Assembly (NCBI GenBank): GCA_964409915.1
Contig: CAYPEQ010000007.1
Span: forward strand, 3,386-67,385
DNA length: 64,000 bases
Direction: 5' to 3'
DNA from: an uncultured Methanoregula sp.
GTDB taxonomy: Archaea > Halobacteriota > Methanomicrobia > Methanomicrobiales > Methanospirillaceae
Position 1 is the stretch's first letter, and every line of letters begins with the position of its first letter. The position numbers and the translations under genes were made by a program. This document shows positions 3,677-43,837 of this stretch, piece after piece. Under the pieces are notes generated by a model. The model made no database searches and was not told the origin of the DNA. It saw only the letters and a program-made list of their open reading frames with translations.

Positions 3677-4579
3677 ATGATCCTTAAGGAGTTTCTCAAA
3701 GAAGCAGGAACGGAAAAGAATCTTGCCAGTCTTATTCTCTTCCTGAGTGAACAGGCAGCTGAAGTAAAAAAGGGCTTTCTTTTGACCTGTTCGAACACGG
3801 CAGCATGCGGCACCCAGAACATCTTCGGGGAAGACCAGAAGCCACTCGACAAATACGCCGATGAAGTGTTCATCAACGCTCTAAAAGAGTCCCGGCTGGT
3901 CAAATATATTGCGACCGAAGAGCAGGATCATATCATCGAAGTACCCGGGGCCAGGAACAATTTTGGTGTGGTGATCGATCCCCTCGACGGTTCCTCTCTC
4001 CTTGACGTTAACCTCTGTGTCGGTTCTATTATCGGCATCTATCCCGGCCATGTTCTTGAAAAGGGATCAAAGATGATCGCAGCCCTCTACATACTGTACG
4101 GGCCACTCACCCTCCTGACGTTCACCACAAAACACGGCGTGCATGAATTTATCCAGCGCCAAGACGGCGAATTTTTCCTGTGCCACCGGGACCTGAAGAT
4201 CCCGGAGGGAAAAATCCACTCGCCGGGCGCACTCCGCAAGGATTACCTGGCACCTCACGCCCAATGGATCAGCCACCTGGAAAGCGAGGGGTACAAACTC
4301 CGGTTCAGCGGCTGTTTTGTGGCCGACGTCCACCAGATCCTCCATAAAGGAGGTGTGTTTACTTATCCCGGGTACAAAGGAAAAGAGTCAGGGAAACTGC
4401 GCCTCCTGTACGAAGCAAACCCTATAGGCATGATCATATGCGAGGCCGGGGGAGCAGTCAGCAACGGGCATACCGATTACCGGGAGATCATGCCGGCATC
4501 GATCGGCCAGGTAACCCCCCTTTATATCGGCGGTAAAAAAGAGATCGCAAAGATTGAAAAATATATGAAGGAAGGATAA
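3677..4579 (+). CDS. fbp: Fructose-1,6-bisphosphatase, class I (bacterial/eukaryotic type)
   Basis: Motifs [40 protein letters not shown] and EAGGAVSNG are present. AGGTGA at 3665-3670 sits 6 nt before the ATG. Confidence 0.9.
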
Positions 4580-4597
4580 GTACAGGGTGCATCAATT

Positions 4598-5737
4598 ATG
4601 GATACGAAAACCTTTGGCCCGATTCCCGGTTCGACTATCTTAACCGGGGTTTCCGGCAAAAAAGCCATTGTTATGGCCGCTAACGTCCGTATTGCAACGG
4701 TTGCGGAAGGCATTTTCAAGGCAGCAACAGATACCGACTCAGCGGTTTTCATGGAACTTGCCCGGTCAGAATCCGATCTTTCCGGGGGATACACCGGGAT
4801 GACCCCGCAGGTCTTTTCGGAGAAGATGCAGGCAGCAGCGAAAGCTACGGGGTGTGACATCTGGGCACTCCATGCCGATCACATATCCATCAAAAAAGGG
4901 GACGCCGCTGAGATTGCCGGGACAAAGCAGCTTATAGATGCACAGGTAAACGCCGGGTATACATCCTTTGCCATCGACGCCTCCCACCTCTTTAACTTCC
5001 AGGGAAAAAATGTCCGGGAGGAACTGGAACTCAATATCCAGGCCACATCTGAGATTGCCCGGTATATCAAACAGAAAATGAACGGAAGTGAATTTGGCCT
5101 TGAAGTGGAAGTGGGCGAGATAGGAAGAAAAGACACCGAAGGCCTGATCCTGACAAAACCTGAGGAGGCAGTCGGATTTATCAAAGCGCTCAACGAAAAC
5201 GACGTTTATCCTCATGTTCTTGCTATTGCAAACGGGAGTTCGCACGGCCATTCCTACGATGCCAACGGAAACGTGATCGAACAACTCTCAATCGATATCC
5301 CCCGTACCCAGGAGATTGCAAAGGCTCTCCGGGACAACCATCTCAAGGTCGGGATCGCCCAGCATGGTATCACCGGCACGCCGCGGGACCTCATTAACCT
5401 GCATTTCCCCAAAGGAGACATCATCAAGGGAAATGTCGGAACGTTCTGGCAGGACGTTGCGTTTAGTATCCTGAAAATCTACGAACCAGCCCTGTACAAG
5501 GATATCATGGACTGGACACTTGAGAAATACCGGCCGGAAAACCCGAATAAAAAAGACAAGCAGATCATCGACGGTAACTGCAAGAACGCGATAAAAGTCT
5601 TCTATAAAGAGATTTACGGGGTCGATGAAGAGACAAATAAAGCCATGAAGGCTATGGCCTACGCAGAAAGCCTCGTCTTTTTCCGGGCGTTTGGCGCATA
5701 TGGTACCGCATCAGCCATACGGAAATCCCTGCACTGA
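4598..5737 (+). CDS. fba: Class II (metal-dependent) fructose/ketose-bisphosphate aldolase family protein
   Basis: Motifs ALHADH, GYTSFAIDASH, EVEVGEIG, LAIANGSSHGHSY and IAQHGITGTP keep the three class II His ligand positions. The gene starts 18 nt after fbp. Confidence 0.8.
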   Translation: MDTKTFGPIPGSTILTGVSGKKAIVMAANVRIATVAEGIFKAATDTDSAVFMELARSESDLSGGYTGMTPQVFSEKMQAAAKATGCDIWALHADHISIKKGDAAEIAGTKQLIDAQVNAGYTSFAIDASHLFNFQGKNVREELELNIQATSEIARYIKQKMNGSEFGLEVEVGEIGRKDTEGLILTKPEEAVGFIKALNENDVYPHVLAIANGSSHGHSYDANGNVIEQLSIDIPRTQEIAKALRDNHLKVGIAQHGITGTPRDLINLHFPKGDIIKGNVGTFWQDVAFSILKIYEPALYKDIMDWTLEKYRPENPNKKDKQIIDGNCKNAIKVFYKEIYGVDEETNKAMKAMAYAESLVFFRAFGAYGTASAIRKSLH

Positions 5738-5797
5738 TCGGTCAAGCATCCCCAACCATTTTAGTATCCTGAAACGATCACTTATTATTGAACGCGT

Positions 5798-6895
5798 ATG
5801 CCAAAAACAACGATCTCCGTCATTAAAGCAGATGTGGGCAGTTTTCCTGGCCATTCCCGCACCCATCCTAAGCTCATTGAAAAAGCAGCGCAGATGCTCA
5901 AAGCCGAACGAGGTAAACTCATTATTGATTCCTTTGTGACGCACTGCGGCGACGATCTCGAACTTATCATGACCCATAACCGGGGCGTCGACAACAAGGA
6001 GATCCATAAGCTTGCATGGAACGTTTTCCTGGAATGCACAAAAATTGCCAAAGACCTGAAATTATACGGTGCAGGCCAGGACTTGCTTGCCGATGCGTTC
6101 GCGGGGAATATCCGGGGCATGGGCCCGGGTGTTGCCGAGATGGAATTTGATGAGCGGAGTTCGGACCCTGTCCTTATTTTTATGGCAGATAAGACTGAAC
6201 CCGGCGCGTGGAACTTCTACCTGTACAAGATTTTTGCCGATCCCTTCAACACGCCGGGCCTCATTATCGACCCGGCCCTCCATGACGGATTTGTATTCGA
6301 AGTCCATGATCTTGTCAAAAAACGAAAGGTGCGGTTCTCCTGCCCAAAAGAGATTTACAGCATGCTTACCTACATCGGGGCACCGTCCCGGTATGTAATC
6401 AAGCATGTATACAAAAAGGACGGTGTTATAGCTGCCGCGACCAGCACCCAGCGGCTCAACATGATTGCAGGGAGATACGTCGGAAAAGATGACCCGGTCA
6501 TGATCGTGAGAGCCCAGAGCGGTTTTCCCTCGATGGGCGAAGTGATCGAGCCGTTTACCACGCCGGTACTGGTCGCAGGCTGGATGCGCGGATCCCATCA
6601 CGGTCCGTTTATGCCGGTCGGTCTGTGCGATGCAAACTGCACACGGTTTGACGGCCCGCCCCGGGTCATCTGTTTTGGGTTCCAGGTCAGCAACGGCGCC
6701 CTTATAGGCCCTGCCGATATGTTCGATGACCCCGGTTTCGACCGGGTCCGGGTGCGTTGCAACGAACTTGCAGACACACTCCGCGCCCAGGGTCCCTTTG
6801 AACCCCACCGGCTTTCACTTGAGGAAATGGAATACACGACCCTTCCCCTGGTGGAAAAGGCGCTGGAAAAACGCTGGGAAGACATTGCAGAGTGA
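5798..6895 (+). CDS. fbp: Bifunctional fructose-1,6-bisphosphate aldolase/phosphatase (archaeal class V FBPase)
   Basis: The N-terminus MPKTTISVIKADVGSFPGHSRTHP and the 365-aa length are typical of the archaeal FBP aldolase/phosphatase family. Confidence 0.9.
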   Translation: MPKTTISVIKADVGSFPGHSRTHPKLIEKAAQMLKAERGKLIIDSFVTHCGDDLELIMTHNRGVDNKEIHKLAWNVFLECTKIAKDLKLYGAGQDLLADAFAGNIRGMGPGVAEMEFDERSSDPVLIFMADKTEPGAWNFYLYKIFADPFNTPGLIIDPALHDGFVFEVHDLVKKRKVRFSCPKEIYSMLTYIGAPSRYVIKHVYKKDGVIAAATSTQRLNMIAGRYVGKDDPVMIVRAQSGFPSMGEVIEPFTTPVLVAGWMRGSHHGPFMPVGLCDANCTRFDGPPRVICFGFQVSNGALIGPADMFDDPGFDRVRVRCNELADTLRAQGPFEPHRLSLEEMEYTTLPLVEKALEKRWEDIAE

Positions 6896-8270: not shown

Positions 8271-9950
8271 ATGATATCCGTCCTCTTTGTCGATGACAAC
8301 ACCGACTTTCTTACCCAGTTTCGTCCAGTGCTTGAAAAGACCGGTGAGGTTCGGATGGAGACAGTGGCCTCTGCAAAGCAGGCAATTGAGAAACTTAAAA
8401 GCAGAAGCTTTGATGTCATCGTCTGTTACGAGGAGAATGCACCGGTCAACGGGATAGAATTTGTTGCCGATATGGACGGTATCGGCTTTTTACGGTATAT
8501 CCGCTCCATGGGAAATCCGACACCGGTCATTATCTTCCACCGGAAAGGGGATAGCCGGGTCACCTTTGAGGAGGTCAGTAACGGTGCCGAGATTGTGGTC
8601 CAGCGGACCGGCGACCTCCGCTCACCTGGGGCTGACCTGGTCACCCTTATCAAACAGGCAGCATTAAGAAAGAAAGCCGAACGGGACGTAAAACTGGAAA
8701 AAGACCAGCTGACTGCGATTCTCTCAGCAACACCTCTCGGTATATTCCAGATGCGGAACTCTGTTATCGAGTGGATCAATCACCCGCTTGCCGCTCTCCT
8801 TGGGGCACCGGAATCTTCGATCGTGGGAAAACCCGTCCGGTCACTTTTTAAGACCGATGAAGAGTTTATACAGGTATTCCGTGACCTCCAGATCCACCGT
8901 GATGTTCTCGGGAACGGTTGCGCGGAATGCGAACTAGTCAGGCCGGGCGGCAGTATTATTGCCTGTACCCTCCAGGCCCGGCTCCTCGATCCGCTTGATG
9001 CAAAAAAGGGCGGCACTGTCGTCGTAACCGATATTTCCGATAAAAAGAAGATGCGGGATGCCATCAAGGAAAGCGAAGCAAAGTACCGGGAGATGATGCA
9101 GAACACCCAGAGTATTATCGTCCGTATGGATGTCCAGGGTGTCATCACCTATGTCAATACCTATGCGGCTGCATTCTTTGATTATGCCGAGGCCGACCTC
9201 GTGGGAAAAAATATCGTCGGTACTATTACCCCGGAGAAGAACCGGGGCGGCCACGACCTCTCGATGATGGCAAACGACCTGGGTTTTAATGCCGAAGGAT
9301 ATGCCATTAACGTCAGCGAAAACATCCGCAGGAATGGCGATATCGTCTGGATTGCCTGGATCAACAAAGCGATCCGCGATCTGCAGGGCCACATCGTTGA
9401 AGTCCTGTGTATAGGCCATGATATTACTGACCGTAAACAGACCGGTGAAGTTCGCATCAGCACCGATACCTGGAAAGATCAGGTCGTTGCCGATACTGAT
9501 GTGCGCCAGGAAGTGTTCGATTCGGTGTTCCACATCTGCACCGAGATCTCAATTGAAGGAAGAGAAGGAAAAGCGGTTGGCACGACATTTCTTATCGGCG
9601 ACACCAAAAACGTGCTCGCAAAATCCCGGCAGATCATGCTCAACGCTTTTGAAGGCCACCAACCTGATATGCGTATGGTTACCAATCCCGATTTAAACGA
9701 GAACATCAAGGAATTTGCCCAGCTCGATGGGGCATTCGTCATCTCCGGCGATGGTTTTATCGAAGCATCGGGGCGCTATATCACGGTCGACTCAAGCAAG
9801 GTAACGCTGCCAAAAGGTATGGGTACACGACACAATTCGGTTGCGGCTATCACGAGCGTTACCCGGGCTGTTGGTATCGTCGTCTCCCAGAGCGGCGGCG
9901 GGATCACGATTTTCAAGAACGGGCAGATCTTAAAGAAGATCAGCCTGTAA
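8271..9950 (+). CDS. Signalling protein: degenerate receiver - PAS - PAS - DAC (DisA_N-type diadenylate cyclase) domain
   Basis: The N-terminus MISVLFVDDN..FDVIVCYEE is a receiver fold lacking the acceptor Asp. Two PAS-like blocks follow. The C-terminus carries GKAVGTTFLIGD, QLDGAFVISGDG, GMGTRHNSVAAIT and VVSQSGGGITIF, matching the DGA / RH(x)xA layout of DAC domains. Confidence 0.6.
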   Translation: MISVLFVDDNTDFLTQFRPVLEKTGEVRMETVASAKQAIEKLKSRSFDVIVCYEENAPVNGIEFVADMDGIGFLRYIRSMGNPTPVIIFHRKGDSRVTFEEVSNGAEIVVQRTGDLRSPGADLVTLIKQAALRKKAERDVKLEKDQLTAILSATPLGIFQMRNSVIEWINHPLAALLGAPESSIVGKPVRSLFKTDEEFIQVFRDLQIHRDVLGNGCAECELVRPGGSIIACTLQARLLDPLDAKKGGTVVVTDISDKKKMRDAIKESEAKYREMMQNTQSIIVRMDVQGVITYVNTYAAAFFDYAEADLVGKNIVGTITPEKNRGGHDLSMMANDLGFNAEGYAINVSENIRRNGDIVWIAWINKAIRDLQGHIVEVLCIGHDITDRKQTGEVRISTDTWKDQVVADTDVRQEVFDSVFHICTEISIEGREGKAVGTTFLIGDTKNVLAKSRQIMLNAFEGHQPDMRMVTNPDLNENIKEFAQLDGAFVISGDGFIEASGRYITVDSSKVTLPKGMGTRHNSVAAITSVTRAVGIVVSQSGGGITIFKNGQILKKISL

Positions 9951-11013: not shown

Positions 11014-12381
11014 TCAGTGTTCTACCGGGTACCCTGCACGAACCCACGCCTGCATACCGCCAAGGACATTGGTTACATCAGTAAACCCATGCATTGCAAG
11101 CACACTTGCCCCAAGGCTTCCCTTGTATCCGGAATCGCAGTACACGAAAACCGGACGATCTTTTGGAATCTCTACGAGGTGTTGTAAAAGCTCACCGATA
11201 TACACCGATGTAGAACCAGGTATATGCCCTACCTGTTCCCTGTTTTTTCTGTCCCGGACGTCAAGGAGGAATGGTTTTTCATGGAACACGACATCATAGA
11301 GTTTCTGGACTGAACAGGTGCCGGTCCTCTCGACCGGTTGTGCAGCACGGCACCATGCGGGAAAACCACCGGCAAGCCAGCCACTCAAAGTATCATAACC
11401 CAACCACACGAAGTGTTGAAATACGGGTTCAATATTACCAGAGAAGTCATCGATAAGCATAATCGGGCGTTTATAATCAAGGAACCAACCGGCAAACGAA
11501 GGGATGCCGTCACGCCAGATCGAAAGGCTGCCGGGAATGTGTCCTGCGGCAAATGCAGTTGGGGAACGTATATCCACGATTTGACCACCGGAAGTAATAA
11601 TAGAGGTTACGTCAGCAGCTGATAGCGGGTGTGGCCTTGTGAGATCACGGAGCAGGGCAGGGCCTTCCCTGTTGACTTTTTCCATTTGCCGGAAATAGGG
11701 CGGCAGGTACGGGGATTCAGTGGTACGCCGGGCGACGAACGCATCGTGTCCGAGTGCCAGGACAGGATTGGAACGCTTTTCGTACCCGATAGTGGAAAAC
11801 GGATGATCAGCAATTTCCTCTCCGCACACGGATCCCGCACCGTGTGCCGGGCAGAGAATGACACCGTCGCCAAGCGACAGGATCTTTCGGGTAATGCTTG
11901 CATAGATCTTTTCTGCCATCACCGCTTTTTGATCCGGCCCGGCTAAATCCGTCCGTGCAATATCACCGGCAAAAAGCGTGTCGCCGGAGAAGACCAGGTA
12001 TGGCTCACGTGAAACCTCATTATCTACTAGAACAAAAGTCAGGCTTTCTTCAGTGTGCCCCGGGGTCTCAAGGACTGATATTTCCAATGTCCCTATCTTG
12101 AACCGGGCGCCTTCGCGGGCAATATTACCGTACTCAAAATCCATCCGAGGGCCATGATAGATCGACGCATTACTCAGGTGCGCAAGTTCCATCGCACCGG
12201 ACACATAATCCTCGTTCCGATGTGTTTCAAAGATATGGGTGATTATAGAATCATGCCGGTCTGCAAGCTCAAGATAGATATCACAATCCCGCCGTGGATC
12301 AATAACTGCCGCTCTTCCCCCAGAGCCAACCATATACGAATTATGAGATAACCCTTCAGAAACGACACGCTCAAACCACAT
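11014..12381 (-). CDS. Metallo-beta-lactamase-fold protein fused to two rhodanese domains (persulfide-dioxygenase-like architecture)
   Basis: MBL motifs are THIFETHRNEDYVSG, LETPGHTEES, FSGDTLFAGD and CPAHGAGS. A first rhodanese has no active-site Cys (IMLIDDFSG). A second has one (VFVYCDSGYKGS). Confidence 0.75.
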   Translation of the reverse strand: MWFERVVSEGLSHNSYMVGSGGRAAVIDPRRDCDIYLELADRHDSIITHIFETHRNEDYVSGAMELAHLSNASIYHGPRMDFEYGNIAREGARFKIGTLEISVLETPGHTEESLTFVLVDNEVSREPYLVFSGDTLFAGDIARTDLAGPDQKAVMAEKIYASITRKILSLGDGVILCPAHGAGSVCGEEIADHPFSTIGYEKRSNPVLALGHDAFVARRTTESPYLPPYFRQMEKVNREGPALLRDLTRPHPLSAADVTSIITSGGQIVDIRSPTAFAAGHIPGSLSIWRDGIPSFAGWFLDYKRPIMLIDDFSGNIEPVFQHFVWLGYDTLSGWLAGGFPAWCRAAQPVERTGTCSVQKLYDVVFHEKPFLLDVRDRKNREQVGHIPGSTSVYIGELLQHLVEIPKDRPVFVYCDSGYKGSLGASVLAMHGFTDVTNVLGGMQAWVRAGYPVEH

Positions 12382-12422
12382 ACGGCAATGAACCCCGCAT
12401 AAATCCAGAAAAAATTGTCAGG

Positions 12423-13313
12423 TTACCGGGGATTTTTTCCGATTATAGTCTTGTTGTCAGGATATGACGACCATTCAGTAAAACCGCCTTCATAGAGAAC
12501 GACGTTATTGTAGCCCAGGTAATATTTGAAGAGCAGGAACTCGTTTGTTGCTTCTCTTCCGGTACCACAGGAACAGATGATGGTTTTCTCTGGTGTGGCC
12601 CCGGCAGCCTGCACCAGTGACTGGATCTGGTCGTCTGGTTTCATGAGTTTTTTATTTTTATCATCCATAAGGCTCTTCCAGGGAAGGCTGACCGCACCGG
12701 GAATGTGGCCGGGCCGGATCCAGGGGCCCTGACCTTCATAGACCGGCGAGGGGCGTGCATCCAAGAGGACGACATTGGCCTCGTCCTTCATCCTGAGGAA
12801 TTCATAATAATCTATGAAAAAATCTTTTTGCAAGTCCACCGTAAACGATGACGGTTTTGTAAGATCGAACTGACGGGTAACAGGACGTTTTTCCTCCTTC
12901 CATTTTTCAAGCCCACCGTCAAGGAGAAACACTTTCTGATGCCCATACCGGGCTAGAGTATAGGCAACCATGGTCTGTTCAAGTCCGTCGCCAATGAAAT
13001 TACCGCACGTGGTCAGGGGGCCGCTGCTTGAGTATACAACGGCCGGTTTGTCCGGTTCCAGTCCCAGGGTCCGGAACAGGATCTCAGCTGCATCGGCCGG
13101 AATCCATCGCGTCGGAATCGCACCTTCATGAATGCGGAATAAGTTTTCATGTGCAAAAAGAGCCCCGGGAATGTGATCCTGGATATACTCGTGGACGTTT
13201 GGCTGACAATCTATAATACCAAGACCTTTGTCATGGAGATGGTTTTCCAGCCATTCAGTGGAAACCCATGCCACCGTTCCGTCGCCTTTTCCATAAGGAT
13301 AGGTTTTTTCCAT
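12423..13313 (-). CDS. Tandem-rhodanese sulfurtransferase (thiosulfate/3-mercaptopyruvate type)
   Basis: 296 aa with two rhodanese halves. The C-terminal half carries the active-site loop TIICSCGTGREAT. The gene starts 42 nt downstream of the stop of 11014-12381 on the same strand. Confidence 0.8.
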   Translation of the reverse strand: MEKTYPYGKGDGTVAWVSTEWLENHLHDKGLGIIDCQPNVHEYIQDHIPGALFAHENLFRIHEGAIPTRWIPADAAEILFRTLGLEPDKPAVVYSSSGPLTTCGNFIGDGLEQTMVAYTLARYGHQKVFLLDGGLEKWKEEKRPVTRQFDLTKPSSFTVDLQKDFFIDYYEFLRMKDEANVVLLDARPSPVYEGQGPWIRPGHIPGAVSLPWKSLMDDKNKKLMKPDDQIQSLVQAAGATPEKTIICSCGTGREATNEFLLFKYYLGYNNVVLYEGGFTEWSSYPDNKTIIGKNPR

Positions 13314-13447: not shown

Positions 13448-14482
13448 TCAAACAAGAAGAGAAAGGAAGAGCAGCACATAAAGCGAGAGCGAGAGCGTCG
13501 GGATGATACGGATCGACCAGTAGTTGACTTGTGCAACCCGGTGAGGATTCTTGTCCTCCGTGAATTTCAGGATAAGAATACCCGAGACCAGTACCATGAC
13601 GAGTGTCGCATAGGTGATGATCATAAAGAAATCCAAAAACGTCGCGTAGGCAACAAGCGGAATGTCATCGGCAATACGCCAGTGGATAAGTACCGCGGCA
13701 AGGAACATCGATCCGTTCAGGCCAAGCCGGGAGGAGACTTTCATCAAAAGCGAGGCTAATGACACAATTACGATAAGCGAGATAGGCAGGAAGAACTTCA
13801 GGATAGTCGATTCAACATCCCGTTCGATACCATAATTGAACACAGCCCGGGAATAGGGAGTTTCCCCTGCCACATAGGTCTTATTGGTTACCAGGGCATC
13901 CATCCCGGTAATAGCCCAACCCGGGAGGTTTGCTTCGGAATCAATGCCGGTATTGTTCTCGTCAATGACAAAAACCATGTCTTTTTCGGTATAGATCTTC
14001 GGTTCAATGAGAATAGGAAGCGTGTGTTTGTCGAAAGGGAACAGGCGCAGATCGGGATTTGCCGTCATGACGGCAAAGATGCGGTAATTTTTTTCCTGGG
14101 GCGTATTGGTGATCGTATCTATTGATGTTACGTGGCCGTTCATGAGCTCGAAGTCGTTTATAGAGACATTGGCATCCGAATCGATGTTTAAGTAAAAATT
14201 CGTTGAGTAGGTCCCCTGCTGGACGCTGAAGTCACTAAAATCCACAACGTAGACCCCGATGTGCACTATCGCCGGGCCGGTTTCGGCAGGCTCGGCTGAT
14301 GTGTTAAGGCTGTTACTGGCAAAGACCGGTACGATGAGGATAGCAAAAACGATGAAGATTAAAAGGATATTCCGGAATGCCACACCGTCTCCTCTTTCAT
14401 GGAATATATCGTTATCCTGTAGCGGTAGTACCATTAGGGAAGTCTCGCCGTCCTCTAAAAACCACATAGGGTAGAAGAACAA
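13448..14482 (-). CDS. Pentameric ligand-gated ion channel (Cys-loop receptor superfamily) homologue, prokaryotic type
   Basis: A beta-rich N-terminal domain contains LRLFPFDKHTLPILIE (the FPFD loop, without the two Cys). M1 is ILKFFLPISLIVIVSLASLL. The M2-M3 region DIPLVAYATFLDFFMIITYATLVMVLV matches the LP.VAY.T..D.F signature of GLIC/ELIC-type channels. The M3-M4 loop is short. The longest ORF starts at TTG 14482; a more likely start is GTG 14383, preceded by AGAGGAGA (MAFRNILLIFIVFAILIVPVFA), or ATG 14434. Confidence 0.8.
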   Translation of the reverse strand: MFFYPMWFLEDGETSLMVLPLQDNDIFHERGDGVAFRNILLIFIVFAILIVPVFASNSLNTSAEPAETGPAIVHIGVYVVDFSDFSVQQGTYSTNFYLNIDSDANVSINDFELMNGHVTSIDTITNTPQEKNYRIFAVMTANPDLRLFPFDKHTLPILIEPKIYTEKDMVFVIDENNTGIDSEANLPGWAITGMDALVTNKTYVAGETPYSRAVFNYGIERDVESTILKFFLPISLIVIVSLASLLMKVSSRLGLNGSMFLAAVLIHWRIADDIPLVAYATFLDFFMIITYATLVMVLVSGILILKFTEDKNPHRVAQVNYWSIRIIPTLSLSLYVLLFLSLLV

Positions 14483-14511: not shown

Positions 14512-14904
14512 TTACAAAGAATGCTGTGGCCGGGAGTTAATGAGCGCTTTGCCGATAAGATCGAGGAGTTCAGTATCAACAAATGGTTTGAAGATCACGC
14601 CACTCTGAGCAACACCCATCATTCGCGCAAGGACATTCTCTGATGAGAAAGCGGTTATAAAAATAACGGGGATCGAAAATCGCTGCTGGATCTTTTGTGA
14701 CGTATCGATGCCATCGAGGGAGCCTCCAAGACCGATATCCATGAGAATGATATCAGGTTTTGGGCATTTTTCAAGTGCCTCAATGGCCATTTCGCCGGAG
14801 GAAGCCGGTTCGATAACGTTGTAACCTGCTCGTTCAAGTATCTCGGTTAGATGAAGCATGATCAATCCTTCGTCTTCGACTATCAGTACAGCTTCCCCGG
14901 TCAT
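14512..14904 (-). CDS. Single-domain response regulator (receiver)
   Basis: An internal ATG at 14904 gives MTGEAVLIVEDEG..PDIILMDIGL..VIFITA..IFKPF, so the canonical acidic pocket, T and K positions are present. Confidence 0.8.
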   Translation of the reverse strand: MTGEAVLIVEDEGLIMLHLTEILERAGYNVIEPASSGEMAIEALEKCPKPDIILMDIGLGGSLDGIDTSQKIQQRFSIPVIFITAFSSENVLARMMGVAQSGVIFKPFVDTELLDLIGKALINSRPQHSL

Positions 14905-14960
14905 ATGTTTTCCCTGGTATTTGTCCACCTCATGAAGTCTCTTCCTTTTATGCGGATTTT

Positions 14961-16913
14961 TTATTTCTTGCGACCGGTTTTTACAAACCGCCATGCATTA
15001 TGGGGGATCAGTAACTCGAACCGTGCTCCCTTCCCGGAGGTACCAATCTCCTGAATCGTTATGCCGGTAATCATCAGGATCTCCCGGGATAAGAACAGAC
15101 CCATACCGGTATTTTTGCCGACCCCGCGTTCGAAGATCCGGTCTTTTGCCTCGTCCGGGATACCGATGCCATCGTCCTCGCAGATAAGAGTCATTCCCTT
15201 TTCAGTGATTACGTAAAAGAACCTGATGGTGGTTATTGTCTCTCCGTAACGGAGCGCATTATCAATAAGGTTATAGAATACTTTCTCTAGGAGGGGATCG
15301 GCATAAATTTCTGTGTCTTCGAGATCCAGGACAAACGTGATCTCTGACTGGGAAAAGTTGACCATATCACGCTCCATAACCTCCTTGAGATTCTGCCAGA
15401 CCGGGGCGTTGACACCAACTTCCTGATATTCCCGGGTAAAAGTGATTTGGCGCTGGATGACCCGCACCAGATCCTTAATCTGTGCGAGAAGAATATCGTG
15501 TTCTTCCTTATTTTTAGTTGAAACAGCCATATCAACGCATCCGATGACACCGGTGACAGTGTTAAGAATATCGTGCCGGGTGATGCTGTTGAGCAGGTTC
15601 AGTTTCTTGTTGGCCAGCTGCATCGCATTTTCCGCTTGACGGTGATCGGTAATATCCCTCAGCACACCATACAGGCCTACGGCCTTACCAAAAACATCCA
15701 CCCGGATAGTACCTTTTTCCTCCACCCAGTGGGTATTCCCCCACATATCTACAATCCGGAATACAGAGGTTTCCTCGGGTTCACCACACGTTACCTTTTT
15801 TAAACTCGCAAGCACGCCTTTACGATCATCCGGATAGACGAAATCAATGAGTGGGTGAGAGACTACATCCTCTTCGAGGAAACCATACCGGTTTACAAGG
15901 GGTGAAACATAGGTAAATATGCCATTTACATCAAGTGAGAAGAGAAGATCGGCAGTGTTCTCTGCAAGGGCACGATACTTCTCTTCACTTTCCCGGAGTT
16001 CGACTTCAATATTCCTGCGTTCGGTGCTGTCCCGTATTAATTCTACAGCACCCACCATTTTGCCCTCCCTGTTGTATAAGGGTGAAGAGATACACCAAAG
16101 CGAGGCACTATTACCGTTGTTGAAAAAGGGGATTGTAATCTCGGAGATAAGCTTTTTACCATCTCTTATAAGAAAGGGGAAATAATTTGCAATGATTTTT
16201 GGATCATTACAGGTGACTATATCGATAAGCATGGGCCGGCGTTCATGGTAAAAGGGAAGCGCGTATGCATAGTCTCCTTTTTCCAGGATTTCATCTGCGC
16301 AGATGCCCGTTAGCTGCTCCATTGCATGGTTCCATGCTGTCACCACGCCGTTTTTATCGATGGCAAAGATCGCATCCGGAAGGGAATCGATGAGGTCTGT
16401 TTCTCTTCGTTCAAGATCTCTGATATACATTTCCATCTGCTTCTGCCGAACAGATTGACGTATTGCATTACTGAGATCGGTAAACAATAATGTGGGATTA
16501 CTGCATTTCTGAAGGCAAAACGTGGCACCCTCGCTGAGTGCCTGAATGACAAACATTTCCCGGTCATTCCCGGAAAAAAGGATAAAAGGTATGTTATTTC
16601 CCGATGACCGTATCTGTTTTAAGAATTCGATGCCGTTTATCCCGGGCATCTGGTAGTCAGAGACGATCACTTCGTAATCCCGGCCCTGCATTTTTTCAAA
16701 CGCTTCTTGTGCGGAAAATGCGATATGCACTGAGAACTGAGGATCTTTTTCAAGGAACCTCCTCCCCACTTCAAGGAGACCTGAATCATCGTCGACAAGA
16801 AGGATCGTTATTTTGGTTAACCCTTCTCGTTTTGATGTCCCTGAAAAAGATCGAGATATCTCTTTTTTAATCGCATTTTCGCCATTTTCCTTTATTACAC
16901 TGGAATCAGACAT
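14961..16913 (-). CDS. Hybrid sensor histidine kinase: receiver - PAS - PAS - HisKA - HATPase
   Basis: Receiver motifs ILLVDDD and YEVIVSDYQMPGINGIEF; two PAS blocks; H-box ITRHDILN; ATPase motifs NLIDNALRYG, DDGIGIP and GKNTGMGLFLSREI. Confidence 0.85.
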   Translation of the reverse strand: MSDSSVIKENGENAIKKEISRSFSGTSKREGLTKITILLVDDDSGLLEVGRRFLEKDPQFSVHIAFSAQEAFEKMQGRDYEVIVSDYQMPGINGIEFLKQIRSSGNNIPFILFSGNDREMFVIQALSEGATFCLQKCSNPTLLFTDLSNAIRQSVRQKQMEMYIRDLERRETDLIDSLPDAIFAIDKNGVVTAWNHAMEQLTGICADEILEKGDYAYALPFYHERRPMLIDIVTCNDPKIIANYFPFLIRDGKKLISEITIPFFNNGNSASLWCISSPLYNREGKMVGAVELIRDSTERRNIEVELRESEEKYRALAENTADLLFSLDVNGIFTYVSPLVNRYGFLEEDVVSHPLIDFVYPDDRKGVLASLKKVTCGEPEETSVFRIVDMWGNTHWVEEKGTIRVDVFGKAVGLYGVLRDITDHRQAENAMQLANKKLNLLNSITRHDILNTVTGVIGCVDMAVSTKNKEEHDILLAQIKDLVRVIQRQITFTREYQEVGVNAPVWQNLKEVMERDMVNFSQSEITFVLDLEDTEIYADPLLEKVFYNLIDNALRYGETITTIRFFYVITEKGMTLICEDDGIGIPDEAKDRIFERGVGKNTGMGLFLSREILMITGITIQEIGTSGKGARFELLIPHNAWRFVKTGRKK

Positions 16914-29937: not shown

Positions 29938-32655
29938 TTAGTTCCCATTCTTTCGGAACAGGAATATTGCGCCGCACAGGCCGATTGCACCGAGGATGGG
30001 CACGGCATCGAGGCCGGTCTTTGGTGTATTAGTTGGAACTGGCGGGATTGTAGTAGATACTGGAGCAGGCTGGTTAACCGTTGGCGGTTGTGTTGGCATT
30101 ACCGTCGGATGACCTACCGTAGGCATCTGGGTTGGACTTCCTGCGGCCGGGGTGGTACTGGGGCCGGTATACCCGGAGGAGGTTCCGGTGTTGCCGGTAT
30201 TTTCCCAATAGACAGTGCCGGCACTGTGTGAGTGGGATGTGGGGGCAGAACCGGTGATACTGATCGTCACAGGGGCAGGATAGCCATCAACGGTTGCGTC
30301 GACCGTTGCTGTCCCGGTTCCCGTGGGAGTAAATGTGGTCTGCGACACACCGGAGGCGGTCAATGTTTGTGAGGGATTGACCCCGCCTAGCCCGGAAATC
30401 ACACTAAAAGATACGGGGATGCCATCCGGGACGACACTCCCGGGTAGATAGGTATTGTCCCCGTTGGAATCGTAGATAAGGCTTGCCTGGACCGTGGAGG
30501 TCTGGAGGGGATAGTAGGTGATGGCTGCCGGTGTGGCGGTGACATTCAGTACCAGCCACGGATTATACAAAACGCCGTTGCTTACAAAGCTGGAGACGTT
30601 GCTGTTCGTGCCCCACCAGTTGTCCGTGGCAATCATCGCCGGATATTCGCCGGAAAATGCGGTGCCGGTGTTTTGCGGATTCTGGGAGCCCGCCGGGGCA
30701 GCTGGAAATATCCCCTGGACCACTGCTAAGGTTGTGTTATCGTTGACCAACCGGGAGAACTGGATGTTACCACCTTGGGCAAAGACAGCGCCGCCTAAAC
30801 TCCCGGCCCCTCCAGCCGAGCAATCAATAATGGTCGTTTGGTTCAATACTGCCGTACCCCGGGAAAAGATAGCCCCACCGTCACTATCTGCTCCTATTAC
30901 CGAGCAGTTGGTAATGGTCGTTTGGTTCACCACTGCTTCATTATCTGAATATATGGCACCGCCTAGACCATAGCCATCCCCTGCCGCGCAATTGGTGAAT
31001 GTGGATGAAGTTACTGACAGTATACCGCCCACCGATCCTTCATGACGCGCGTCTATTGCACCGCCATAGGCATCCCAATTCAAATCTGTGCAGGAGGTAA
31101 ACGTGGACGAACTCACCGTAAGGTCACCGTTCTGAACGTAAACGGCGCCACCGTCCCAACCGCCCGTGCAGTTGGTGAATACAGAATTGGTCACCGTTGC
31201 GTAAGCTGCCGGGATTATCGATCCAGGAGAGGGAGCTGTCTCTCCTTGAGTGGTGAGTACGAAAATAGCGCCACCCCAGCCATCGGGACTTGCTATTCCG
31301 CAGTTGGTGAAGGTGGACCCGGAAACGTTCACGCCATATGTAGAATAAATTGCTCCGCCGGCGTTGTTGGTGTATTCTTCTTCTCCGGCATATGATGGGC
31401 AGCTGCAGCCGGAGAACGTGGACGAAGTTGCTGTTACGCTCCCCCCAGAGAAAATACCCCCGCCGTTAGCGCTGGTGCCGGTAGCTAAGCAGTTGGTGAT
31501 CGTGGACCCCGTTATGTTTACATTTCCACCTGCGTAAATTGCGCCGCCATCGGTTACAGCTGTGCAAGCGGTAATGGTCGATGAGGTCAGCGTGGTCACA
31601 CCTGCCGAATGTATTGCGCCACCATTACTCCCGGCGGTACAGTTGGAAATCTGGGATGACTGAACAGTTACTGTTTGTGCCGAAATGGCACCCCCCCAGT
31701 TGGTAGTTGTGTTGCAGGAGACTATCGAGGAATTGGTCAACAATACCGAACTCCACGAGGAAAGAGCACCACCATAACCTCCTGCCGCGCAGTTGGAGAT
31801 AGTAGATGAACTCACGTTTATCGCTTGTGCCGAAATGGCACCTCCAATACCGTCCGCTCCATTTGCATAGCAGTTAGTGATCGTGGACCCGGTTACGGTT
31901 ACCGTCCCGCCTCCCTGGGGTCCGTTAATAGCACCGCCTCCTCCATACCCACTGGTATCGGATGCAGTGCAGTTGGTAATCGTGGACCCGGTCACGGTTA
32001 CTGGGCCTGATGAATAGATTGCACCGCCTTTCAAAATTGTTACCACGCAATTGGTGAAGGATGAGGATGTGATATTAACCGTGCTGCCGGTCCAGGCAAA
32101 GATCGCTCCGCCGCCTTCGGAGGTTGTTTTTGATGTGCATTTGGTAAATGAAGATGAGGTAATGGTGAGAGTGTAAGCGGCACTATGGAGAGGATTAAAC
32201 CAGATAGATCCACCATCACCCGTACCCGAGGTACAATTGTAGAACTGGCAACCAGTGATGGTGAGGGGGCCGCTCGCTGCAATTGCGCCACCCCCACCAT
32301 TTTCTGAATTCATATTCTGTAGGGCCAGATTGCTGAGGGTGAGGGATGAGGAATCCGTTATATAGATAAACCTGTAACTGGACTGCCCATCGATGATCGT
32401 GTCCGACGGGCCATGACCAGCTGCCGCCGTGATGGTGATATTCTTACCACTTGACAAGATCACGGAAGACACAAAATACGTTCCCGGCTCAAGAACGAGG
32501 GTATCACCATCATGCATCGCGGAAATATTTGTCGCGAGCGCATTCAGGGAACTGTTATCGATGGTGATTATCGCCGCGGGTGTGGGTGCCACAACAATAA
32601 CCAGCGCTAAAATCAACAGCGATGCAAGAACCAGACTATACCGTTTTAAACCCAT
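29938..32655 (-). CDS. Large surface protein: about 17 parallel-beta-helix (polymorphic-membrane-protein-like) repeats, Thr/Pro linker, C-terminal TM anchor
   Basis: ATG 32655 gives MGLKRYSLVLASLLILALVIVVA. The repeated unit is S(S/T)(F/I)TNC....GGAI(Y/F/S). The tail is PTVNQPAPVSTTIPPVPTNTPKTGLDAVPILGAIGLCGAIFLFRKNGN. Confidence 0.75.
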   Translation of the reverse strand: MGLKRYSLVLASLLILALVIVVAPTPAAIITIDNSSLNALATNISAMHDGDTLVLEPGTYFVSSVILSSGKNITITAAAGHGPSDTIIDGQSSYRFIYITDSSSLTLSNLALQNMNSENGGGGAIAASGPLTITGCQFYNCTSGTGDGGSIWFNPLHSAAYTLTITSSSFTKCTSKTTSEGGGAIFAWTGSTVNITSSSFTNCVVTILKGGAIYSSGPVTVTGSTITNCTASDTSGYGGGGAINGPQGGGTVTVTGSTITNCYANGADGIGGAISAQAINVSSSTISNCAAGGYGGALSSWSSVLLTNSSIVSCNTTTNWGGAISAQTVTVQSSQISNCTAGSNGGAIHSAGVTTLTSSTITACTAVTDGGAIYAGGNVNITGSTITNCLATGTSANGGGIFSGGSVTATSSTFSGCSCPSYAGEEEYTNNAGGAIYSTYGVNVSGSTFTNCGIASPDGWGGAIFVLTTQGETAPSPGSIIPAAYATVTNSVFTNCTGGWDGGAVYVQNGDLTVSSSTFTSCTDLNWDAYGGAIDARHEGSVGGILSVTSSTFTNCAAGDGYGLGGAIYSDNEAVVNQTTITNCSVIGADSDGGAIFSRGTAVLNQTTIIDCSAGGAGSLGGAVFAQGGNIQFSRLVNDNTTLAVVQGIFPAAPAGSQNPQNTGTAFSGEYPAMIATDNWWGTNSNVSSFVSNGVLYNPWLVLNVTATPAAITYYPLQTSTVQASLIYDSNGDNTYLPGSVVPDGIPVSFSVISGLGGVNPSQTLTASGVSQTTFTPTGTGTATVDATVDGYPAPVTISITGSAPTSHSHSAGTVYWENTGNTGTSSGYTGPSTTPAAGSPTQMPTVGHPTVMPTQPPTVNQPAPVSTTIPPVPTNTPKTGLDAVPILGAIGLCGAIFLFRKNGN

Positions 32656-33023
32656 CTTAGCCACCAACTCCATCAAATGAACAAACAACCCGGAGTTACA
32701 AGTATTTTGACAAAATTGAGAGATTCCCAATTTCAAATAAACCTGTACATCTTAGTTACCATACATTCTATAGGACAATATAAAGAGATTACGATATAAA
32801 GTGACGTTGCATTAACGGAACTTTATAAAAATGATACAGTCGTTAGACAGTATTGTTAACCCCTTAAAAATCCCGACAACGCAACAGAAGGCTCTGTTAA
32901 GTCTTCGAATGATAGCATTAAGCCTACATCGAGGAAAATATGTCCCCACCCGCAAGACGCATCAAGTTCCTCCAAAGATACCTTTAAACGCCTCTTGTAC
33001 ACACATCATCGAAGTGAGAAATC

Positions 33024-34073: not shown

Positions 34074-36887
34074 ATGAAAAATATCATCATTAAAGGTGCC
34101 CGCCAGCACAACCTGAAAAATATCAATGTGGAGATCCCCCGGGACAAGCTTGTCGTCATCACCGGTGTCTCCGGCTCCGGCAAATCCACATTAGCCTTTG
34201 ACACCCTCTATGCCGAAGGCCAGAGAAGATACGTCGAATCACTTTCCACCTACGCCCGCCAGTTCCTGGGCCTCATGCACAAACCCGACGTGGACAGCAT
34301 CGAAGGACTCTCGCCCGCCATCTCCATAGAGCAGAAGACCACCTCCAAAAATCCACGGTCAACTGTAGGAACCACCACCGAAATCTACGATTACCTCAGG
34401 CTCCTTTTTGCGAGAATCGGTATTCCCTACTGCCCTGAACATAACATCCCCATCGCGGCCCAGACCCCGGAAAAAATCGCAGACCAGATAGCGGCCGAGT
34501 ACTCCGGCATGGTCACCATACTCGCACCAATCGTAAGGCAGAAGAAAGGGACCTACCAGCAACTCCTCAAAGACCTCAACAAAGAGGGATATGCCCGGGT
34601 CCGGGTCAATAAAAACATCATCCGGACCGATGAAGAAATCGCCCTTGACCGGTACAAGAAGCAGGATATCGAGATCGTCATCGACCGGTTAGAAACAACA
34701 GATCGTTCGCGGCTTGCAGAAGCAGTAGAAAACACCCTCAAAAAGTCCGAGGGTCTCGTACTCGTTGCCGATGAATCAGGCAAAGAATCAACCTACTCCT
34801 CCCTGTTAGCATGCCCCATCTGCGGCCTCGCGTTCGAAGAGCTCCAGCCGCGGATGTTCTCGTTCAACAGCCCGTTTGGCGCCTGCGAAGAGTGTCACGG
34901 GCTCGGCGTCAAGATGGAATTCGACGCCGATCTCATCATCCCGGATAAAGACCGGTGTATCGCAGACGGTGCTGTTGCCCCCTACCGGAACCCCATGGAC
35001 GGTTTCCGGGGCCAGTACCTCGCAACCGTTGCAAAACACTACGGTTTCTCGGCCCTCACGCCCATAAAAGACCTCACCGAAGAGCAGTACAACGCGCTCA
35101 TGTTCGGCTCGAACGAAAAGATGCACTTCGAGATGAGCATGAAAAACGGGGAGGCCCAGTGGTCGCATAACGGCGAATGGGAGGGTCTTCTCCCCCAGAC
35201 CGCCCGACTTTATTCCCAGACCCAGTCAGAATGGCGGAAACGGGAGCTGGAGAATTATATGCGGGTCTTTCCCTGCCCGGCCTGCAAGGGAAAACGGCTC
35301 AAGGATAAAGTGCTCGCCGTCCGGATCAAGGATAAATCGATCATCGATGTCACGGATCTTTCGATCACCAACGGCTTGGCATTCTTTTCCGGTCTCCAAC
35401 TCACCGAAAAAGAGCAGGAGATCGCCCGGCAGATCATAAAAGAGATCAATTCCCGGCTGTTGTTCCTGGAAAAGGTCGGTCTTGGCTACATCACGCTCTC
35501 ACGAAACGCCGGTACCCTCTCCGGGGGCGAGATTCAAAGGATCCGGCTTGCCACCCAGATCGGATCAAACCTCATGGGCGTCCTGTACGTCCTCGATGAA
35601 CCCTCCATCGGGCTGCACCAGCGCGACAACAAAAAACTCATCGGAACGTTACGAACCCTCCGTGACATAGGAAACACGCTCATTGTTGTGGAACATGACG
35701 AGGACATGATCCGCAGTGCAGACCATGTCATTGACATCGGGCCGGGTGCCGGGCTCCATGGTGGCGAGATCATAGCCGAAGGCACACCGCAGCAGATAGA
35801 AAAGAACAAAAAATCCCTCACCGGGCAGTACCTTGCCGGGAAAAAACGGATCGAGGTACCCACGAGTCGTCGCAAAGCAACGAAGTATATCACGGTCAAA
35901 GGCTGCACGGAAAACAATCTCAAAAACATCAACGTTAAAATCCCCATCGGCCTTTTTTCCGTCGTCACCGGCGTTTCCGGGTCCGGCAAATCCACGCTGG
36001 TCTACGACACCCTGTACAAGGGTATGATGCAGAAGCTGTACGGTTCCCGGGAACAGGCAGGTGCCCACAAAGCGATCACCTTCGATTCTGAGATCGACAA
36101 GGTCATCGTCATCGACCAGAGCCCCATCGGCCGGACACCACGGTCGAACCCGGCAACCTATACCAAGCTCTTTGACGAGATCCGGGCGGTCTTTGCGGAA
36201 ACCAAGGACGCAAAGATGCGAGGCTACAAGCCCGGGAGGTTCTCGTTCAATCTCCGGGGCGGCCGGTGCGAGGCCTGCGAAGGAGACGGCCTGATCAAGA
36301 TCGAGATGAATTTCCTGCCCGACGTCTATATCGAATGCGAAGAGTGCAAGGGGAAGCGGTACAACCGGGAGACCCTCGAAGTAAAATACAAAGGTAAGTC
36401 AATTGCCGATGTGCTGGACATGAGCGTCGAGGAAGCGATGGCGCTCTTTGAACACATACCCTCGATCCAGAGCAAACTTGAGATGCTCTCCCGGGTTGGT
36501 TTAGACTATGTCAAACTGGGGCAAAGTGCAACCACGCTTTCAGGAGGCGAGGCACAGCGGATCAAGCTCACCAGGGAACTCGCAAAGAGGGCGACGGGAA
36601 AGACCCTGTACCTGCTCGATGAACCCACAACCGGGCTCCATTTTGACGATACCAAAAAACTCATCAAAGTGCTCGACGACCTCGTAGAGAAAGGCAACAC
36701 CGTCGTCGTAATCGAACACAACCTCGATGTGATCAAATCAGCCGATCACCTCATCGACATCGGTCCGGAGGGCGGGGATGCCGGGGGAGAGATCGTGGCT
36801 ACCGGCACTCCGGAACAGGTGGCAGCGGTACCGGAAAGTTATACCGGGCAGTTCCTGAAGGCGATGCTTGCGAAAAAAGCCTCCTAA
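34074..36887 (+). CDS. uvrA: Excinuclease ABC subunit A
   Basis: 937 aa. The N-terminus is [45 protein letters not shown]. There are two ABC modules with zinc-finger CxxC pairs. Confidence 0.95.
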
Positions 36888-42517: not shown

Positions 42518-43837
42518 ATGACAACCTCAAAACGTCAGGCAAAGAAACGACACGAGACGCCCCTTAACCTGCTCAGGAAATACTGGGGCTATGCCACATT
42601 TCTGCCTCTTCAGGAGTCAATAATCAACGCGGTCCTTGCAGGACAGGATACCTTGGCCATTCTTGCCACCGGGAGCGGAAAATCGATCTGCTACCAGGTA
42701 CCAGGGTTGTGTCTCGGTGGTCTCACCGTTGTCATCTCACCACTCATTGCGCTTATGAAAGACCAGGCCGATGATCTTAATGCCCGGGGGATACTGGCAG
42801 CTGCCTGCACCGGAACACTCGATTATCGCGAGCGTGCAAAAGTCATCACCGACATAAAAGAAGGAAGACTGCAGTTCCTGTTTATCTCCCCGGAAAAAGC
42901 CACGCAGGCCGGTTTTCTTGAGATCCTCACAACAGCACCAGTCCATCTCATTGCCATCGATGAAGCCCACTGCATCTCGGAATGGGGGCACTATTTCCGG
43001 CCTGAGTACCGAAAACTGGCCCGGTTCAGGGACTATTTCCCGGGTGTACCGGTCATTGCCCTTACGGCAACTGCAATTCCTGAAGTCAGGAAGGACATCT
43101 GCCGGCAGCTCGGGCTTGTCCACGTCCAGGAATTCGTAGGCAGTTTTAACCGGGAGAATCTTACCTACAAGGTAACCGAAAAGAAAAACCCGCTTATCCT
43201 TATCACCGATATACTCAGCCGGCATAAAAACGAACCGGGGATCATCTACTGCATGAGCAGGAAAACAACCGTGGAGTTGACCGGGGAGCTCCGTAAGAAG
43301 GGATTTACGGCACGTGCCTATAACGCAGGCATTTCCGCGCCGGTGAGGGCAGGCATCCAGGATGCATTTCTGAACAACACCGTGCAGATCATATGTGCCA
43401 CTGTTGCGTTCGGCATGGGGATCGATAAGCCCGATGTCCGGTTTGTTGTTCATTATGATCTCCCCAAAACCATCGAGTCCTATTACCAGGAGACCGGCCG
43501 GGCAGGCCGGGACGGGAAGCCTGCTGAATGCATTCTCTTCCACAGCAAGACCGATGTGGAGAAAATCCGGAACTTGTTGTCCTATGGTTGCAAGAACAGC
43601 CAGACGGTCAAAATGGCACGGGATAAATTCCGCGATCTATGCCATTTCTGCGAGATCACCTCGTGTAAAAGGAGTTTTCTGCTAGCTTATTTTGGGGAAG
43701 GTCAGGGCCCTGACGGTTGTGCGATATGTGAGACCTGTATGCATCCAAACATACCTGCGGGCAAGGTCATCAGTCATAAAAAAGTGCGGAGTTATCGTGG
43801 GAGAATTGCTTGCGCCAATCCGGTCCCTGCCAGCTGA
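42518..43837 (+). CDS. recQ: RecQ-family ATP-dependent DNA helicase (short form, no HRDC)
   Basis: Motifs FLPLQESIINAVLAG.DTLAILATGSGKS and DEAHCISEWGHYFRPEY, the helicase C domain, and the Zn-binding CHFCE..C..CAICETC. Confidence 0.9.
   Translation: MTTSKRQAKKRHETPLNLLRKYWGYATFLPLQESIINAVLAGQDTLAILATGSGKSICYQVPGLCLGGLTVVISPLIALMKDQADDLNARGILAAACTGTLDYRERAKVITDIKEGRLQFLFISPEKATQAGFLEILTTAPVHLIAIDEAHCISEWGHYFRPEYRKLARFRDYFPGVPVIALTATAIPEVRKDICRQLGLVHVQEFVGSFNRENLTYKVTEKKNPLILITDILSRHKNEPGIIYCMSRKTTVELTGELRKKGFTARAYNAGISAPVRAGIQDAFLNNTVQIICATVAFGMGIDKPDVRFVVHYDLPKTIESYYQETGRAGRDGKPAECILFHSKTDVEKIRNLLSYGCKNSQTVKMARDKFRDLCHFCEITSCKRSFLLAYFGEGQGPDGCAICETCMHPNIPAGKVISHKKVRSYRGRIACANPVPAS

Follow-up and report, generated by a model that had tools for sequence, protein, structure and literature searches.

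A compact pentameric ligand-gated ion channel homologue encoded by an uncultured Methanoregula archaeon

A 64,000-nucleotide stretch of DNA from an uncultured Methanoregula sp. (assembly GCA_964409915.1, contig CAYPEQ010000007.1, positions 3,386 to 67,385), hereafter the window, carries on its minus strand, at 13448..14467, a gene which, judging from both sequence comparison and a predicted structure, encodes a genuine, unusually small member of the nicotinic/GABA receptor channel family (GABA, gamma-aminobutyric acid), the pLGICs (pentameric ligand-gated ion channels). The gene adds an uncharacterised member to a known superfamily and belongs to a compact subfamily that has been largely missed by curated domain models. 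Considered as a whole, the data are very probably best explained by a compact pLGIC homologue with the layout and gating proposed below, whose physiological role may be environmental sensing coupled to ion flux. A preceding sequence-only reading of the same open reading frame (ORF) had recognised a Cys-loop-receptor-type pLGIC homologue, and this identification was borne out by sequence, profile and fold evidence.

Methanosarcina was the source of archaeal pLGIC genes described in 2005 (Tasneem et al., as cited in PMC4795631), and 10 further archaeal genera were added in 2016 (PMC4795631). The statement of the sequence-only reading on Methanosarcina members was essentially correct, but dated. 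The biological role is known for no unicellular pLGIC (PMC4795631), and the literature searched yielded no paper that connects pLGICs with Methanoregula or with DPANN archaea.

Sequence and fold evidence

A phmmer comparison of the single protein sequence with PDB sequences retrieved the GLIC-GABA-A chimera 5osa at 5e-14, followed by DeCLIC (1e-13), sTeLIC (1e-12), the GABA-A beta3 subunit (5e-12) and GLIC (1e-8). A profile built from 79 diverse relatives matched GLIC with an E-value of about 1e-40, and hhalign gave 99.7% probability for GLIC over 284 columns and 99.1% for ELIC, the GLIC and ELIC reference sequences being exact PDB matches. The NCBIfam model TIGR00860 (LIC) was matched at an E-value of 5.6e-15, and the 47%-identical Methanospirillum lacunae orthologue (WP_109967998.1, P0124) already bears the NCBI name 'ligand-gated ion channel'.

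The superfamily's defining residues appear in Table 1 of PMC4795631 (Jaiteh, Taly and Henin), and every one of them was found in the Methanoregula protein, namely F148, P149, D151, W189, R221, P233 and P275, to which 0'Arg252 and 9'Leu261, both invariant in its clade, may be added. The [F/Y]-P-x-D motif was located where the beta6-beta7 loop has its tip; Pro149 is conserved in all 79 relatives and Asp151 in 76. The core Trp of beta9 (GLIC W160) corresponded to W189 within LPGW (78/79), and the pre-M1 Arg (GLIC R192), which pairs with the Pro-loop Asp in the superfamily (PMC4795631 criteria), corresponded to R221, a position occupied by Arg in 64 and by Lys in 14 of the 79 relatives. The kink Pro of M1 (GLIC P204) was found at P233 (76/79), and the M2-M3 loop Pro (GLIC P247) at P275 (79/79). 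The motifs quoted in the sequence-only reading, LRLFPFDKHTLPI, FFLPISLIVIV with the M1 Pro233, and DIPLVAYATFLDFFMIITYA, the last of which spans residues 273-292, were all located in the ORF translation. The motif LPKVAYATAMDWFIAVCYA, which that reading had ascribed to GLIC for comparison, in fact belongs to the GABA-A alpha1 part of the chimera 5osa; GLIC reads NLPKTPYMTYTGAIIFMIYLF there.

The fold agreed with the sequence comparisons. The AlphaFold2 monomer model, for which the alignment of the 79 diverse relatives served as input, reached a mean predicted local distance difference test score (pLDDT) of 88.7, and of ~97 for residues 70-344, with nine beta strands followed by four helices. 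The expected architecture, a beta-sandwich (with 9 strands instead of 10) and then a four-helix transmembrane (TM) bundle, was therefore present in the model. In a Foldseek search against the PDB the top matches were all pLGICs, including GLIC with an E-value of 3e-22 and a TM-score of 0.78-0.80, and sTeLIC with a root mean square deviation (rmsd) of 3.0 A. The flanking Cys pair and the long intracellular M3-M4 domain of strict Cys-loop receptors were both missing: the whole protein contains 0 cysteines, and the predicted very short M3-M4 loop before a final TM helix turned out to be a 3-residue turn between model helices 282-309 and 313-343.

Gene, start codon and domain organization

On the minus strand, 13448..14482 is a single unbroken ORF of 344 codons when counted from a TTG at 14482, which represents only a mechanical ORF start; residue numbers follow this count. 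The candidate starts are ATG M6 (14467), ATG M17 (14434) and GTG V34 (14383), the last preceded by GAGGAG. A 100% identical JGI protein of 339 amino acids (aa), P0001, begins at M6. In about half of the homologous loci listed, an ATG lies ~57-67 codons 5' of residue 66, which is the position of M6, and in several of the listed loci that ATG is the sole start candidate ahead of the hydrophobic segment. In the closest relative, the sister genome L007, only the M17 equivalent is available. The gene was taken as 13448..14467, with M6 or M17 as the likely start and V34 as a further candidate.

The gene is real and under strong purifying selection. Against the L007 orthologue, the mature part showed 96.6% protein identity, with a synonymous divergence (dS) of 0.64 and a ratio of nonsynonymous to synonymous divergence (dN/dS) of 0.03; values of 0.05-0.13 were obtained against seven further orthologues. 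A pseudogene or chance ORF was ruled out by dN/dS and conservation. A search for a second gene copy within the window found none, and an Rfam search of the window gave no match. The features of the gene are as follows.

13448..14467, minus strand: coding sequence of the pLGIC homologue, 339 aa counted from ATG M6; stop codon at 13448..13450
14375..14467, minus strand: charged N-terminal tail, residues 6-36; recurrent M(E/D)(E/D)...RH.NP...PARA..R in homologues; pLDDT <50
14318..14374, minus strand: hydrophobic helix, residues 37-55, RNILLIFIVFAILIVPVFA; model helix 33-49; (V/I)P-x-x-A-x-A-type end
13817..14287, minus strand: compact extracellular beta-sandwich sensor domain, residues 66-222 (~157 aa); nine strands, no beta3
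14030..14041, minus strand: Pro-loop signature F148-P149-F150-D151, without flanking Cys, within LRLFPFDKHTLPI (residues 145-157)
13745..13816, minus strand: M1 helix, residues 223-246; kink Pro233; pre-M1 Arg221 just upstream; FFLPISLIVIV at residues 230-240
13670..13738, minus strand: pore-lining M2 helix, residues 249-271, followed by the M2-M3 Pro275
13556..13639, minus strand: M3 helix, residues 282-309 (AlphaFold2 model)
13454..13546, minus strand: M4 helix, residues 313-343, after the 3-residue turn that follows M3; no intracellular domain

The N-terminal tail is specific to the Methanoregula clade and presumably cytoplasmic. An N-terminal signal peptide had been claimed for the protein; a hydrophobic signal-like core does exist at residues 39-55, followed by VFA|S, but it does not stand at the very N-terminus, since a charged tail of ~30 aa precedes it. 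The Pro and the A-x-A pattern of the hydrophobic helix were kept in the alignment of close relatives (A1). Helix 37-55 is read as a putative signal peptide that would be cleaved, its n-region being unusually long; less likely, it would be an uncleaved N-terminal anchor, that is, a fifth helix. The mature size is ~290 aa, below those of GLIC and ELIC.

The sensor domain, which the sequence-only reading had put at ~200 aa, comprises ~157 aa and is 26-30 aa shorter than those of GLIC and ELIC, the deficit being located between beta2 and beta4. From the start of beta1 to the proline of the Pro-loop there are 79 residues, vs 105 in GLIC and 109 in ELIC. The deleted stretch corresponds to about GLIC 49-72, which takes in strand beta3, the loop joining it to beta2, and the first part of loop A; the beta4-beta5 and beta5-beta6 turns are slightly trimmed as well. 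The same span measured 77-90 residues in 79/79 diverse relatives, so this compactness is not peculiar to the Methanoregula protein.

A further observation concerns the shortened beta2-beta4 connector. In the alignment of the 79 diverse relatives (A2), a C-x-x-x-C motif (e.g. FRCDQPCD) was found in 31/79 wider-family members at the columns of residues 96-116, P0135, P0137, P0141 and P0143 among them; the Methanoregula clade has Ser and Val at these positions. The motif is possibly a disulfide or metal staple in place of beta3.

Proposed gating, pore and ligand pocket

It is proposed that, after export via the signal-like helix 37-55, the nine-stranded sensor would face outward with M1-M4 embedded in the membrane, and that the M2 helices of five subunits would line the pore. 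An agonist would bind at the subunit interfaces, at Tyr78, Tyr97, Glu112, Arg134, Glu160, Tyr203 and Tyr210; its signal would be relayed by a coupling core made of the FPFD Asp151, the pre-M1 Arg221 and the M2-M3 Pro275; and this relay would open a hydrophobic gate at 9'Leu, 13'Leu and 16'Trp.

The pore positions of M2 read -2'S, -1'S, 0'R, 2'G, 6'S, 9'L, 13'L, 15'H, 16'W, 17'R and 20'D, and in an alignment of 27 clade members they were invariant except for -2'S (25/27) and 13'L (26/27). No acidic residue occupies -1' or -2', where GLIC has E-2' and ELIC has E-1'. Because the acidic -1'/-2' ring of characterised cation-selective channels is missing, and since the selectivity-filter motif is not predictive of selectivity in prokaryotes (PMC4795631), the charge selectivity was left open.

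As for the ligand, the crystallographic pocket of ELIC is formed by E77 and I79 of loop A, E131, P132 and F133 of loop B, Y175, L178 and F188 of loop C, Y38 of loop D, N103 of loop E and F19 of loop G; E77 and E131 adjoin the cationic centre of the ligand, and R190 relays the signal (PMC3316889). ELIC takes small primary amines as agonists (PMC9674596). Its pocket residues were mapped onto the Methanoregula protein by three alignments made independently with MAFFT-add, BLASTP and hhalign.

ELIC F19: Y78
ELIC Y38: Y97
ELIC E77: E112
ELIC I79: M114
ELIC N103: N132
ELIC E131: E160
ELIC P132: P161
ELIC F133: K162
ELIC Y175: Y203
ELIC F188: Y210
ELIC R190: R212
ELIC L178: no clear equivalent, being inside the shortened loop C

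On inspection of the pocket aromatics, suggested in the sequence-only reading, both Glu and four of the five aromatics of ELIC were found to be kept; the loop-B F133 is replaced by Lys162 and loop C is shortened. Among the 79 diverse relatives, Y97 was conserved in 65, E112 in 63 (with Asp in 10 more), E160 in 69, Y203 in 66 and Y210 in 55 (with Phe in 13 more); Arg134, which aligns with R105 of both GLIC and ELIC, was kept in 72. Since the two glutamates and most of the aromatics that hold the ammonium group in ELIC are retained, a small cationic amine would be the likeliest class of agonist, an assignment by analogy that we put forward tentatively and with more doubt than confidence.

Contrary evidence and alternative readings

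Several observations weigh against the interpretation given above. First, the sequence-only reading had proposed the Pfam families PF02931 and PF02932 as a check on its identification, and at curated thresholds this check failed: PF02931 (Neur_chan_LBD) scored 18.3 bits, below the gathering cut-off of 26, PF02932 (Neur_chan_memb) gave no match to the protein, and only 24/79 relatives matched either model at E<0.01. It is for this reason that nearly all of 354 close relatives are labelled 'hypothetical protein' without a precomputed Pfam domain. At the sequence level, the shortfall is unambiguously offset by the phmmer match at 5e-14 and the profile match at 1e-40, more sensitive comparisons that removed the doubt. 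Second, the ELIC analogy is weakened by Lys162 at the position of the loop-B aromatic, by a loop C 6 residues shorter than that of ELIC, and by the deletion of part of loop A and strand beta3; therefore, the geometry of the pocket may differ from that of ELIC. The conserved basic residues R134, K131, K162 and R212 are equally compatible with an anionic ligand. Third, five Trp side chains at 16' could give a very tight pore. Fourth, no conserved operon partner was found among 53 other loci, the shared neighbours being generic PAS kinases only, and the genomic context therefore offers no hint about the ligand. Finally, the literature searched contained no experiment on, or characterisation of, any archaeal pLGIC.

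Among the alternatives, the channel might be gated by pH, as are GLIC (acid) and sTeLIC (alkaline), with His153 of the Pro-loop and His267 (M2 15') acting as sensors at the coupling interface. Both channels are the best structural matches of the model, H153 is invariant in the clade and present in 53/79 members of the wider family, H267 is kept in 71/79 relatives, and acidic peat is the habitat of Methanoregula relatives. The proton sensors of GLIC, which from its mutagenesis we take to be E35, H235 (11') and E243 (19'), are nevertheless lost: the alignment places G90 (Gly in 69/79), A263 and A271 at these positions, by which GLIC-type proton sensing through these residues was ruled out. In addition, a bound ligand is favoured by the strong conservation of aromatic and acidic residues in the orthosteric pocket. 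Overall, pH gating appears unlikely.

An anionic agonist was also considered, in which a short-chain carboxylate (acetate, formate) or bicarbonate would be held by Arg134, Lys131, Lys162 and Arg212. R134 stands at the R105 position of GLIC and ELIC in 72/79 relatives, K162 takes the place of the ELIC loop-B aromatic, R212 is invariant in the clade, and R105 and R77 of GLIC contact carboxylates. Against this, E112 and E160 are conserved to the same degree as the arginine and would repel an anion. Moreover, R190 of ELIC, the counterpart of R212, participates in signal propagation and makes no ligand contact (PMC3316889). We regard an anionic agonist as improbable.

That the fold was kept and the gated channel lost, leaving a constitutive leak, or a receptor or scaffold that does not conduct, is most improbable: a 16' ring of bulky Trp and a trimmed sensor domain are unusual features, and function is known for no unicellular pLGIC (PMC4795631), but conservation extends over the entire coupling core and the 9' Leu gate, nearly every M2 position examined is invariant in the clade, dN/dS is very low, and ELIC conducts with an aromatic Phe at 16' by alignment (PMC9674596).

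Distribution of the homologues

When one genome for each GTDB species was scanned, 48 loci were returned, most of them in genomes named Methanoregula, Methanoregulaceae, Methanomicrobiales or Methanospirillum; since the scan was run with the close alignment A1, it reports the Methanomicrobiales clade only. The loci include that of the cultured, completely sequenced Methanospirillum lacunae Ki8-1, with 49% identity. The methanogen host assumed in the sequence-only reading was supported by the closest loci, which belong to metagenome-assembled genomes (MAGs) of Methanoregulaceae, by the synteny of L007, and by a nearby gene with a FilR1 methanogenesis-regulator domain.

Four MAGs among the scan loci are labelled Methanomassiliicoccales or Methanomassiliicoccaceae. 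On long contigs or chromosomes under these labels, the homologues of L034, L037 and L047 are 57-59% identical; that of L031, whose record is titled 'metagenome genome assembly', is 59% identical. These homologues point either to wrong taxonomic labels or to lateral transfer across orders of methanogens. In four MAGs, two paralogues were found on different contigs (L020/L036, L022/L027, L028/L040 and L044/L051), and heteromeric channels are therefore conceivable.

When 1.84 billion cluster representatives were searched exhaustively, 2193 clusters scored E<=1e-3, 554 of them E<=1e-10. A protein search with the A2 profile returned the same Methanomicrobiales clade, and a profile made of distant members only (A4) retrieved proteins of ~300 aa, all named 'hypothetical', whose organism names, where given, were Woesearchaeota, Aenigmarchaeota, Nanoarchaeota, Micrarchaeota, Chloroflexota (including Dehalococcoidales and SAR202) and Planctomycetota. 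The clade, which appears confined to Methanoregulaceae and Methanospirillum, is part of a broader compact family with further members in DPANN archaea and Chloroflexota.

Genomic neighbourhood

The local gene order is common to the window and the sister genome L007 only. A function based on neighbourhood was rejected, as it is only in these two genomes that the channel gene is flanked by rhodanese genes (12423..13313 and 11014..12381) and by the receiver/PAS-kinase pair (14512..16913); with synteny so limited, they are uninformative on channel function.

Directly downstream of the channel gene, 11014..13313 (minus strand) encodes a double-rhodanese sulfurtransferase (296 aa) and a metallo-beta-lactamase/double-rhodanese fusion (455 aa) with a persulfide-dioxygenase-like look. 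Immediately upstream, the gene of a 160-aa receiver (14512..14994) overlaps that of a 650-aa receiver-PAS-histidine kinase (14961..16913) by 34 nucleotides (14961..14994, minus strand), which suggests translational coupling of this kinase/regulator pair. Other genes of the window are listed below.

3677..6895, plus strand: three-gene cluster of fructose-1,6-bisphosphatase (FBPase), class II aldolase and fructose-1,6-bisphosphate (FBP) aldolase/phosphatase
8271..9950, plus strand: 559-aa receiver, PAS and DisA-type diadenylate cyclase (DAC) protein, 94% conserved in L007
10000..10962, minus strand: 320-aa ORF without a Pfam match at E<=1e-3
29938..32736, minus strand: 932-aa ORF without a Pfam match at E<=1e-3; sub-threshold DUF4957 match
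34074..36887, plus strand: bacterial-type UvrA
42518..43837: RecQ-like helicase
43899..45452, plus strand: bacterial-type UvrC
47783..49570, plus strand: 595-aa ORF without a Pfam match at E<=1e-3
49681..51003, plus strand: RuBisCO large-subunit homologue, 440 aa, with no small subunit nearby
51067..53022, plus strand: bacterial-type UvrB
56104..57591, plus strand: methyl-accepting chemotaxis protein with a PAS domain; no obvious transmembrane sensor region

The receiver-PAS-DAC protein would give a methanogen a c-di-AMP synthase under two-component control, the three uvr genes are dispersed, and the organism probably has a chemotaxis system.

Implications

A methanogen that carries a pLGIC is unsurprising to the specialist; of modest interest are the compact sensor, the pocket that resembles ELIC's, and the filter without acidic residues. 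Pfam-based annotation overlooks most of the compact pLGIC family. The small size of the protein, together with a well-conserved and strongly selected clade that has a cultured relative in M. lacunae Ki8-1, makes it a practical candidate for studies on the structure of a minimal sensor domain, on the antiquity of ELIC-type amine recognition, and on what methanogens sense with such channels. In a bolder and rather doubtful interpretation, the clade and the wider ~300-aa family would constitute a structurally distinct, 'minimal' pLGIC, with a nine-stranded, beta3-less sensor and a filter devoid of an acidic ring (-2'S, -1'S, 0'R), gated by a small amine from the environment and either non-selective or anion-permeable. 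If this were true, then to our knowledge no such prokaryotic pLGIC would have come before it, and no functional member of the superfamily would be smaller.

Comparison with known channels

Precedents are found in the archaeal pLGIC genes of Methanosarcina, Methanobacterium and Thaumarchaeota catalogued in 2005 (Tasneem et al.) and 2016 (Jaiteh et al.), which are likewise Cys-less, known from sequence only and unassigned in function (PMC4795631). In the accessible portion of the text and supplements of PMC4795631, the Methanoregula and Methanospirillum names and UniProt codes had no match. From CHARACTERISED members, the protein differs in its compact sensor domain, its M2 pore residues and the charged tail before the hydrophobic helix.

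GLIC of Gloeobacter violaceus, which is proton-gated (PDB 3eam, 4hfi), was the best overall match in profile and fold. Both proteins lack an N-terminal helix or extra domain and the Cys pair, have a very short M3-M4 turn, and share the Pro-loop, the pre-M1 Arg, the M1 Pro and the M2-M3 Pro. Unlike GLIC, the Methanoregula protein has a sensor domain 26 aa shorter, without beta3, lacks the proton sensors E35, H11' and E19', and carries S-2' and S-1' instead of E-2', and a 16' Trp instead of Ile. Two other bacterial channels, sTeLIC (PDB 6fl9) and DeCLIC (6v4a), were among the top single-sequence matches, sTeLIC with the lowest rmsd (3.0 A). The sensor domain is of full length in each of the two, their agonists are different or not known, and DeCLIC also bears a large extra N-terminal domain, the match spanning its residues 422-629 only.

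The likeness to ELIC of Dickeya/Erwinia, which is gated by amines and GABA (PDB 2yn6, 3rqw), resides in the pocket, where six of 10 alignable positions are identical (Y38, E77, N103, E131, P132 and Y175, although N132, the counterpart of N103, varies within the clade), three changes are conservative (F19 to Y, I79 to M and F188 to Y) and R190 equals R212, and in the pore, which shares the 16' aromatic and the 9' Leu. Unlike ELIC, with which identity is only 23% over residues 132-316, the Methanoregula protein has Lys162 for F133, a loop C 6 aa shorter and a sensor domain 30 aa shorter, and lacks the E-1' of ELIC.

With the metazoan anionic Cys-loop receptors (GABA-A beta3/alpha1, GlyR, GluCl), the protein shares the lack of an acidic -1' residue and the 0' Arg. 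It differs from them in having no Cys-loop disulfide, no intracellular M3-M4 domain and no -2' Pro/-1' Ala motif, and in its much smaller sensor. Its transmembrane domain scored GABA-A above GLIC in phmmer (5e-12 for beta3 vs 1e-8), and its segment PLVAYATFLD resembles PKVAYATAMD of GABA-A alpha1.

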